This document shows, in pieces, positions 51,536 through 52,255 of a stretch of 64,000 bases of DNA. Source of the stretch: Escherichia coli (GTDB taxonomy: Bacteria; Pseudomonadota; Gammaproteobacteria; Enterobacterales; Enterobacteriaceae); the NCBI RefSeq assembly GCF_044324785.1, contig NZ_CP172127.1; one strand, written 5' to 3'. The translations under genes were made by a program, and so were the position numbers. The stretch's first letter is position 1; each line of letters begins with the position of its first letter. The notes below the pieces were generated by a model, which had not been told where the DNA came from, did not search any database, and saw only the letters and a list, made by a program, of their open reading frames with translations.

Positions 51536-51799
51536 ATGAGTAATAAAACACTTGTTAAAAAATCAAATAACTGTGTCGATGCATACGCCGACGCGTTTGG
51601 CTACTCTTCGTTTGGTGACGGCTCTCAGCGCCTAGGTTCAATTTCTTTTTTTCATAATGTAACTGAATGGCCTGTTGATGAAAGTGACGATGTTGAGAAC
51701 ATAAAGTACAACATTGCAACCATTAGAATGCCCGAAGAATTGATGCTTAAATTGGCTGACTTCATTCGCGACCAGCATGACAAAGCTAAAACAAACTAA
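51536..51799 (+). CDS. Hypothetical acidic protein, first gene of cI-distal immunity-region module
   Basis: 87-aa ORF with RBS-like aaagg upstream, co-oriented with cI; no family recognised. Confidence 0.5.
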   Translation: MSNKTLVKKSNNCVDAYADAFGYSSFGDGSQRLGSISFFHNVTEWPVDESDDVENIKYNIATIRMPEELMLKLADFIRDQHDKAKTN

Positions 51800-51811
51800 T
51801 CGTAATTAATT

Positions 51812-52255
51812 ATGAAACACGATTATTACGAAGCTCCAAACCTAAATGATAAAATTGCAAAGGCGGCAGAATCATTTTGTTTGCACTCCAGTGCGTCTTC
51901 CCAGCTAGCAGGTATATCTGGAAAAAGATGGGACATGCTACAATCAAGTGGTAGCAGTGGGTCTGGGAGTGATAACATGCCTGAAAAAGTTGCAAAACTG
52001 GAGTCCGATGTTGCTCATATCAAACGAGACGTTGATGAACTTAAAACAGACGTTAAAGCTATCGACAAAAATATGATAACTATTCTTGCACGTCTGGACT
52101 CTATAAAAGAATCCTTAACAAACAAGCCATCAAGTGATGCTGTCGATAGAAAGATTTCAGACGCAAAGCTTGCGGTATTGCTTGGTGTTCCAGCAATCAT
52201 CGCTGCAGGAACAGGACTTTATAAGCTATCAATGTACTTTTTCTTTAGTGCTTAA
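51812..52255 (+). CDS. Hypothetical membrane-anchored coiled-coil protein, second gene of immunity-region module
   Basis: 147-aa ORF; heptad-like charged region (…KVAKLESDVAHIKRDVDELKTDVKAIDKNMITILARLDSIKESL…) then C-terminal hydrophobic segment (LAVLLGVPAIIAAGTGLYKL). Confidence 0.5.
   Translation: MKHDYYEAPNLNDKIAKAAESFCLHSSASSQLAGISGKRWDMLQSSGSSGSGSDNMPEKVAKLESDVAHIKRDVDELKTDVKAIDKNMITILARLDSIKESLTNKPSSDAVDRKISDAKLAVLLGVPAIIAAGTGLYKLSMYFFFSA

Follow-up and report, generated by a model that had tools for sequence, protein, structure and literature searches.

In a 64,000-nucleotide (nt) stretch of Escherichia coli DNA (contig NZ_CP172127.1 of assembly GCF_044324785.1), here called the window, two co-oriented open reading frames (ORFs) lie on the + strand directly after the gene for a cI-type prophage repressor and before the putative leftward promoter pL: ORF1 (gene A, 87 amino acids (aa), 51536-51799) and, 12 nt after it, ORF2 (gene B, 147 aa in its long form, 51812-52255). 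An original prediction had singled out the pair at these coordinates, and our ORF calls agree with it. We find that this uncharacterised pair belongs to a modular class of prophage cargo linked to repressors, which is fairly widespread and had not been described before, and we propose, at a probability of roughly 45%, that they would act as a lysogen-expressed, Rex-like module for phage exclusion, with a sensor or regulator and a membrane effector as its two parts. Membership in a larger modular class, the interchangeable nature of the first gene, the occurrence of the pair in the sieA slot of other prophages and an internal ribosome-binding site and start codon in B had all escaped the original prediction.

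Comparison with diverged alleles indicates that ORF1 and ORF2 are real genes under purifying selection, beyond chance ORFs. The ratio of nonsynonymous to synonymous substitution rates (dN/dS) for ORF1 was 0.05-0.16 against alleles 60-95% identical, and that for ORF2 was 0.16-0.24 against two alleles aligning over its whole length and 0.41 against an allele with a replaced C-terminal core; within ORF2, the N-terminal 55 codons were looser (0.2-0.6) than the core (0.13). The G+C content of the two genes (39-40%) was lower than that of the neighbouring genes (47-53%). ORF1 had no match in Pfam, NCBIfam or PADLOC, and ORF2 gave only sub-threshold coiled-coil matches in these collections; in PADLOC-DB v2.0 (2023), ORF1 had 0 hits, and those of ORF2 were confined to coiled-coil matches with PbeC, LmuB and JetC (E values of at least 0.004). 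A sequence-profile search of the PDB with the B family returned generic coiled coils only. Neither protein matched any PHROG of known function: ORF1 matched phrog_4231 and ORF2 the C-terminal part (half) of phrog_3556, both of unknown function, and ORF2 showed no SieB homology, its PHROG matches being unknown-function or weak coiled-coil families. These searches agree with the earlier view that neither protein belongs to a recognised family (RexA/B and SieB included), and by sequence and architecture the module is not of the RexAB, SieA, SieB or XhlA families. No paper on these genes emerged from literature searches covering GevT/GevA, the RefSeq accessions, ECO26_0580, XhlA together with defence, and membrane proteins of immunity regions.

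The product of ORF1 is acidic, as had been claimed (isoelectric point 4.96, with 14 Asp and Glu against 10 Lys and Arg), and contains no hydrophobic segment, and its AlphaFold2 model (predicted local distance difference test score (pLDDT) 77.6) consists of an antiparallel beta-sheet with a C-terminal helix; we predict that the protein is small, soluble and cytoplasmic. Its family is very restricted: among 1.84 billion proteins, only 8 representatives were present at 50% identity. A ribbon-helix-helix reading of ORF1, based on the resemblance of its 'ATIRMPEELMLKLA' to the Arc/Mnt ribbon-helix 'FNFRMPLEVREKLK', was rejected, as hhalign against Mnt aligned 11 columns at 0.8% probability.

Gene B encodes a variable N-terminal segment (residues 1-43; 51812-51940) with a short predicted helix at residues 11-21, a Ser/Gly-rich disordered linker (QSSGSSGSGSDN; 51941-51976), a coiled coil (residues 56-104; 51977-52123) of seven perfect heptads with Val, Met or Leu at position a and Leu or Ile at position d, and a transmembrane (TM) helix at about residues 118-140 (52163-52231), all on the + strand. 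The TM helix is the sole hydrophobic stretch of the protein (Kyte-Doolittle 19-residue maximum 1.8), and a KKPS juxtamembrane motif lies between it and the coiled coil. The heptads and the hydrophobic stretch thus bear out the coiled coil with one C-terminal TM helix described in the original prediction. The TM helix ends seven residues before the C-terminus, which points to a tail-anchored topology with the bulk of the protein in the cytoplasm. The TM and juxtamembrane region is also the most conserved part of B, with K105, P106, I115, S116, A118, L124 and G133 invariant and P127 and T134 nearly so, which argues for a specific membrane function over that of a passive anchor.

We analysed IMG/VR loci that hold an ORF1 homolog (30 loci) and loci retrieved with the B core (80 loci). 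In 29 of the 30 ORF1-homolog loci, the next gene overlapped or lay at most 12 nt away and had the same build as B, its variable N-terminus being followed by a Ser/Gly linker, then by a coiled coil that starts M-(L)-E-x-R-V-A-x-L-E and finally by a C-terminal TM helix, so that the pair is conserved across prophages; at L044 (L numbers are our locus identifiers) the script returned no downstream ORF, and in one other ORF1-homolog locus the DNA ends inside the gene. The B core (residues 55-147, comprising the coiled coil, the KKPS motif and the TM helix) was found in 244 protein clusters, all from Enterobacterales, in the genera Escherichia, Salmonella, Klebsiella, Citrobacter, Cronobacter, Enterobacter, Pantoea, Erwinia, Serratia and Rahnella. 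The B-core matches listed are unnamed or 'hypothetical' except for two automatic names, 'Hemolysin XhlA' in UniRef and 'regulator of replication...' from the Joint Genome Institute, and none carries a Pfam domain. In 70 of the 75 loci with a callable B gene, an A gene lay immediately upstream in tight linkage (gap -29 to +29 nt). At a strict BLAST threshold, these A genes fell into at least five unrelated families plus singletons: the ORF1 family (17 loci; phrog_4231), a family of 84-98 aa (14 loci; phrog_12039), several families of about 140 aa whose sequences suggest an all-beta fold and which merge at a looser threshold (28 loci; phrog_5893/5881) and a 119-aa family with a CxxC...CxxC pattern (8 loci; phrog_4293), all of these PHROGs being of unknown function. 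The gene upstream of A was a repressor in 56 of 65 loci (~86%), 52 of them cI-like and of many immunity types and 4 of the Mnt/Arc type, and representative upstream repressors were confirmed as the transcriptional repressors phrog_4, phrog_8 or phrog_5736. Independent look-ups gave the order cI, 140-aa A, B in Serratia fonticola and short cI, 88-aa A, B, kilR in L011. Two partners were tried for remote homology and set aside: the 88-aa protein of L011 and L095 was marginal (hhalign E 0.0026, 11% probability), and the 93-aa partner in Rahnella showed no homology.

The N-termini of B formed 18 clusters, each of which was paired with one A family only, while the core was common to all. This one-to-one pairing suggests that A docks on the N-terminus of B, and by this pattern A and the N-terminal peptide of B appear to be one cassette and the B core another. 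A related exchange is seen in the Salmonella phage UPF_BP1, in which A is 95% identical and the N-terminus of B is related, with the coiled-coil/TM core replaced (B is 34% identical overall); this replacement points to a recombination joint at the linker of B. Separately, the 134-aa E. coli protein P0070 is an in-frame chimera that joins ORF1 residues 1 to about 58 to the coiled coil and TM helix of a UPF_BP1-type ORF2; it was seen in one genome and resembles a deletion between the two genes. At another locus (L073:1022-1761), the A position holds a second B-like protein (99 aa, coiled coil and C-terminal TM helix, starting MEMRVSKLEADV...), so that two tail-anchored coiled-coil genes stand in tandem; the gene upstream of them is not a repressor.

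A second property of B concerns its translation. The first codon of the core was ATG (41) or GTG (2) in 43 of 43 distinct sequences, divergent core types included, and GGAGG preceded this codon in 36 of the 43, at a modal spacing of 7 nt (25/43). The GGAGG is encoded by glycine codons of the linker, typically GGA GGN, and GGA makes up 35% of the Gly codons in the linker region, compared with a share of about 11% across the E. coli genome. In the window, the motif reads GGGAG (51965-51969) and is followed after 7 nt by ATG 51977. The long-form start is less well provided, with a Shine-Dalgarno-like 4-mer at only 16 of 44 such starts and none at that of the window, and gene callers often choose the internal start and annotate the short form only. 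The long frame is nevertheless genuine: in every locus with a called A gene it is open to within 29 nt or less of the A stop (51 distinct N-terminal regions, 2460 codons), whereas the other two frames across the same regions hold 123 and 254 stops. Homologs of B that appear as 90-99-aa 'core-only' proteins were rejected as such in both cases inspected, because the open frame continues upstream and makes a gene of full length. Together, the conserved start signal inside B and the genuine long frame predict two products, B-long (147 aa) and B-short (M56-A147, 92 aa; 51977-52255, + strand), the latter being the conserved core, and B is probably made in both forms.

The position of the pair bears on when it would be expressed. 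The repressor gene (50761-51453, + strand) encodes a helix-turn-helix domain and an S24 peptidase domain (phrog_4, E 5e-73) and is the first gene of the presumed operon of the repressor-maintenance promoter PRM; cro lies on the minus strand at 50429-50659. An 82-nt spacer (51454-51535, + strand) separates cI from ORF1 and is conserved in a 79%-identical allele (alignment with L035 and L049); a scan of its + strand found no terminator and no sigma-70 consensus. The cI-A-B unit ends at an intrinsic terminator (52330-52360, + strand), consisting of a GC-rich hairpin at 52330-52353 (AAACCCGGCC...GCCGGGTTT) followed by a T-run, which matches the terminator before pL originally placed at 52333-52360. 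Beyond it, reading directly from the sequence, we noted putative leftward operators (OL), that is AACAAC/GTTGTT palindromes (52470-52527, + strand), and a putative pL, TTGACG-17-TTAAAT (52499-52527, + strand), which overlaps the palindromes and was not flagged by the consensus scan; kil, gam, bet and exo follow on the + strand. The OL-type palindrome recurs at PR/PRM (50698-50722), which indicates that the + strand here corresponds to the leftward direction of lambda and that both ORFs occupy the topological position of rexAB. Gene order and shared palindromes therefore agree with the rexAB-equivalent slot that had been claimed, and the order PRM-cI-cargo-terminator-OL/pL is its exact topological equivalent in lambda. 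This operon structure makes it most likely that ORF1 and ORF2 share a transcript with the repressor and are produced in lysogens.

Some further details of the locus were recorded. The cI frame is open from an upstream in-frame ATG at 50698, inside the operator palindrome, giving a 251-aa ORF; the cI homolog of E. coli SE11, of the same length (230 aa), starts in RefSeq at the equivalent of 50761, and use of the longer ORF is improbable. The stretch from the putative pL to kil (52528-52805) holds no ORF for an N-like antiterminator, only a leader of about 280 nt, and an Rfam scan of 50000-53500 gave nothing meaningful, with no known RNA element in that leader. A 136-aa ORF with a TTG start (52601-53011) corresponds to kil (52805-53011) plus an upstream extension.

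The slot between cI and pL is a cargo hotspot. Of 5426 complete E. coli genomes, 197 carried the identical A-B pair, Shiga toxin-producing E. coli (STEC) strains of O26 and O103 among them, while about 1500 E. coli genomes carry the cI of the window; in about 1700 other E. coli genomes the match to the 51454-52400 query is partial and presumably lies in its flanks. The same interval is 100% identical to a prophage at the DLP12 site of E. coli SE11, whose annotation labels the two genes 'hypothetical protein'. The cargo of the slot differs among phages with 97% identical cI/cro: PhiR47_2 (L012:3623-5051) has an annotated toxin-antitoxin pair with overlapping frames, GevT (357 aa) and GevA (125 aa); PhiR68_2 (L013:2546-4001) has two unannotated genes (341 aa and 149 aa), likewise with overlapping frames; PhiR26_1 has one hypothetical gene; and the slot of PhiR34_1 is apparently empty, judging from its match span (~1.4 kb, cI and cro only). 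The low G+C content and the presence/absence polymorphism of the pair are typical of morons. The same terminator hairpin stands 3' of the cargo in other prophages, and the sequence AACCCGGCC(A/C)C(C/N)G(T/C)GCCGGGTTTT is near-identical behind unrelated cargo in different prophages (window 52330-52360; L011:4291-4315); the hairpin may mark the right-hand edge of an exchangeable cassette. Published work describes the cI-n region as a mosaic hotspot that holds rexAB and bstA, and places cI with the prophage genes that lysogens transcribe most highly (PMC8585504).

Exchange was also seen on the other side of the cargo. Across the ORF1-homolog loci, the upstream cI carries one of two different DNA-binding domains, so that the same A-B cargo stands behind two repressors with a common C-terminal (S24) half and different N-terminal domains (MKTTLSERL... 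and MKKETLADRL...; L027, L037, L040, L057, L063 and L065, and SE11). Strain SA31-1 carries the module at 100%, like SE11, yet matches only bases 242-693 of the cI of the window. The shared S24 half with different DNA-binding domains indicates that immunity specificity has been swapped upstream of the cargo.

In the mechanism that we propose, A and B would be co-transcribed with the repressor from PRM as an accessory module. B would be tail-anchored in the inner membrane, with its N-terminal segment, flexible linker and coiled coil facing the cytoplasm, and would oligomerise through the coiled coil and the unusually conserved TM helix. Long B would bear the N-terminal segment, and short B, made from the internal Shine-Dalgarno sequence and ATG 51977, would consist of the core only. 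A, the specificity element, would bind long B at its N-terminal segment and serve either as an infection sensor or as a neutralising partner that keeps B inactive. Superinfection would then alter A or the balance of long to short B, upon which the B core would perturb the inner membrane and the incoming phage would be aborted or excluded by a Rex-like (PMC12894663) or holin/antiholin-like logic.

Several points weigh against this proposal. An AlphaFold2 run on an ORF1-(GGS)10-ORF2 fusion with a 9-row paired alignment was uninformative (pLDDT 45, predicted template modelling score (pTM) 0.26), which leaves the A-B contact without structural support. B has a single C-terminal TM helix and a long coiled coil and is nearly all cytoplasmic, unlike RexB with its four TM helices, which makes pore formation speculative. 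Neither protein is homologous to any known defence protein in PADLOC-DB v2.0, and some modules lie away from repressors, as morons among tail genes, at a prophage end or, in Rahnella, at a locus without obvious phage genes. As for the two forms of B, the GGAGG may be a by-product of selection on the glycine linker at the protein level, and the sequences counted are not phylogenetically independent.

A close parallel in organisation is with RexAB and the Rex-like pairs (Sbash gp30/31, CarolAnn gp44/43, Butters gp30/31 and P. putida RexABpp), which also consist of two genes directly 3' of the repressor (PMC8585504, PMC12894663). As in RexAB, the unit ends at a terminator before OL/pL and encodes one soluble cytoplasmic product and one membrane protein, expression in the lysogen is presumed, and the variable soluble component is plausibly a sensor. 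The resemblance does not extend to the proteins themselves: ORF1 and ORF2 share no sequence or fold similarity with RexAB, ORF2 gave no RexB match in PADLOC, and RexA is a DNA-binding dimer of about 280 aa, compared with the 87 aa of ORF1 and its predicted beta-sheet and one helix. The internal start of B and the swappable A cassettes are likewise without a Rex counterpart. For the predicted pair of B products there are precedents in SieB-Esc of P22 and lambda, reportedly treated by Ranade and Poteete in 1993, and in the lambda antiholin/holin S107/S105. In these, as predicted for B, a second in-frame start yields a shorter membrane isoform that may antagonise or modulate the longer one; the module differs in lacking homology to either and in that its predicted internal start lies 55 codons downstream, at a domain boundary. 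BstA of BTP1 and its relatives resembles the module as prophage cargo 3' of cI that presumably shares its promoter, and has neither sequence nor architecture in common with it, being a single protein that localises to phage DNA replication sites and has a DNA-based self-immunity element, aba (PMC8585504).

The distribution of the class outside cI operons raises another explanation. In P22-like prophages of Salmonella, Serratia and Leclercia (L001, L014, L018, L050-52), the upstream repressor is of the Mnt/Arc family, mnt, A and B are joined by 4-nt ATGA overlaps, and the pair fills the sieA slot between mnt and the ejection-protein gene 16; P22 sieA sits near mnt, between gene 16 and gene 9 (PMC10883804), a placement shared by these homologs of the window's pair. 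Raoultella and its relatives carry the pair as a moron within the tail-gene cluster, with no adjoining repressor. Five further loci (L094, L104, L106, L126, L128) have the CxxC...CxxC family of A 3' of a 224-276-aa phrog_791 protein of unknown function, again with no repressor, and may by analogy with L003 and L016 be tail-region morons. The sieA-slot and tail-region locations, together with the conserved TM helix, would suit exclusion at DNA entry, in which B blocks the ejection or transit machinery of lambdoid or P22-like phages in the manner of P22 SieA or HK97 gp15 and A is accessory or stabilising; like SieA, B would be an inner-membrane protein expressed from the prophage. We regard this as unlikely. 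B would expose no more than about 7-10 residues to the periplasm, its bulk and A being cytoplasmic, and SieA is a single protein of 162/164 aa with three TM helices and an FxRYPxEAxxFNK motif (PMC10883804), whereas the module has two genes, one TM helix and a coiled coil and lacks that motif. A soluble partner diversified into unrelated families also fits intracellular sensing better than a passive block.

An equally unlikely explanation is a toxin-antitoxin-like module or one acting on lysogen physiology, in which B would act as a small toxin of the membrane or as a stress factor and would be neutralised by the acidic A, and which would stabilise the prophage or alter the host envelope. The layout, in which a small acidic protein is encoded ahead of a membrane protein and tightly coupled to it, is compatible with this explanation, as is the GevT/GevA pair in the equivalent slot of PhiR47_2, and the in-frame A::B fusion or deletion P0070 indicates that the locus can be disrupted. 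However, the profile searches found no similarity to any known toxin-antitoxin family, and the wide swapping of A families on one B core would be unusual for cognate pairs. Many toxin-antitoxin systems are themselves defence systems, so that this explanation partly overlaps with phage exclusion.

Less likely again is a role in the phage's own life cycle, with the module assisting lysis in the manner of XhlA or, like Rex, modulating the switch from lysogeny to lytic growth. The XhlA likeness had been raised in the original prediction, and it holds for architecture: in XhlA (Pfam PF10779), too, an N-terminal coiled coil precedes one C-terminal TM helix, and its profile is weakly similar to B, which in addition shows weak coiled-coil and TM similarity to 'hemolysin' PHROGs (phrog_1193, E 1.4e-4; phrog_937, E 1.2e-3) and has the UniRef homolog automatically named after XhlA. 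It fails as family membership, since the Pfam XhlA match of ORF2 is below threshold (E 0.11) and 0 of 25 family members reached E ≤ 0.001 (best 6.9e-3). XhlA-type genes sit in the lysis cassettes of Bacillus prophages, whereas the module lies far from the lysis cassette, in repressor operons, with a partner gene and a variable N-terminal extension. As to the switch, lambda RexAB is reported, in the title of a reference in PMC12894663, to aid the lysogenic-to-lytic transition. Close relatives of the same immunity type that lack the module are viable isolates, so the module appears dispensable for lytic growth. Finally, it is very improbable that the ORFs are an annotation artefact, or that the N-terminal extension of ORF2 is untranslated and the short core the sole gene, as might be supposed from the missing Shine-Dalgarno sequence of the long form and the frequent choice of the internal start by gene callers, because dN/dS is well below 1 in both genes, the long frame stays open across the 51 N-terminal regions where the other frames are closed by stops, and the N-terminal clusters of B track the A family.

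Collectively, phage exclusion by a Rex-like sensor and membrane effector is the explanation that we prefer for the pair. A broader proposal, which we put forward more tentatively, is that the whole class would be a widespread, unrecognised type of plug-and-play abortive infection or exclusion system, in which a two-isoform, tail-anchored effector receives interchangeable adaptors or sensors on a docking peptide and works by a mechanism unlike those of RexAB, SieA, SieB and BstA. The cI-to-pL slot is the home of the classic exclusion system rexAB, and the other cargo found there is largely uncatalogued; our analysis turns one hypothetical gene pair of this slot into a defined class with a conserved membrane core, at least five exchangeable partner families, many immunity types and two predicted isoforms. 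If the class does serve in defence, it would contribute a family that the 2023 PADLOC catalogue lacks and would offer a tractable model of how sensor modules are swapped onto a common membrane effector. With the exact pair present in close to two hundred E. coli genomes, the O26 and O103 STEC strains among them, the module could affect the phage susceptibility of clinically relevant strains.

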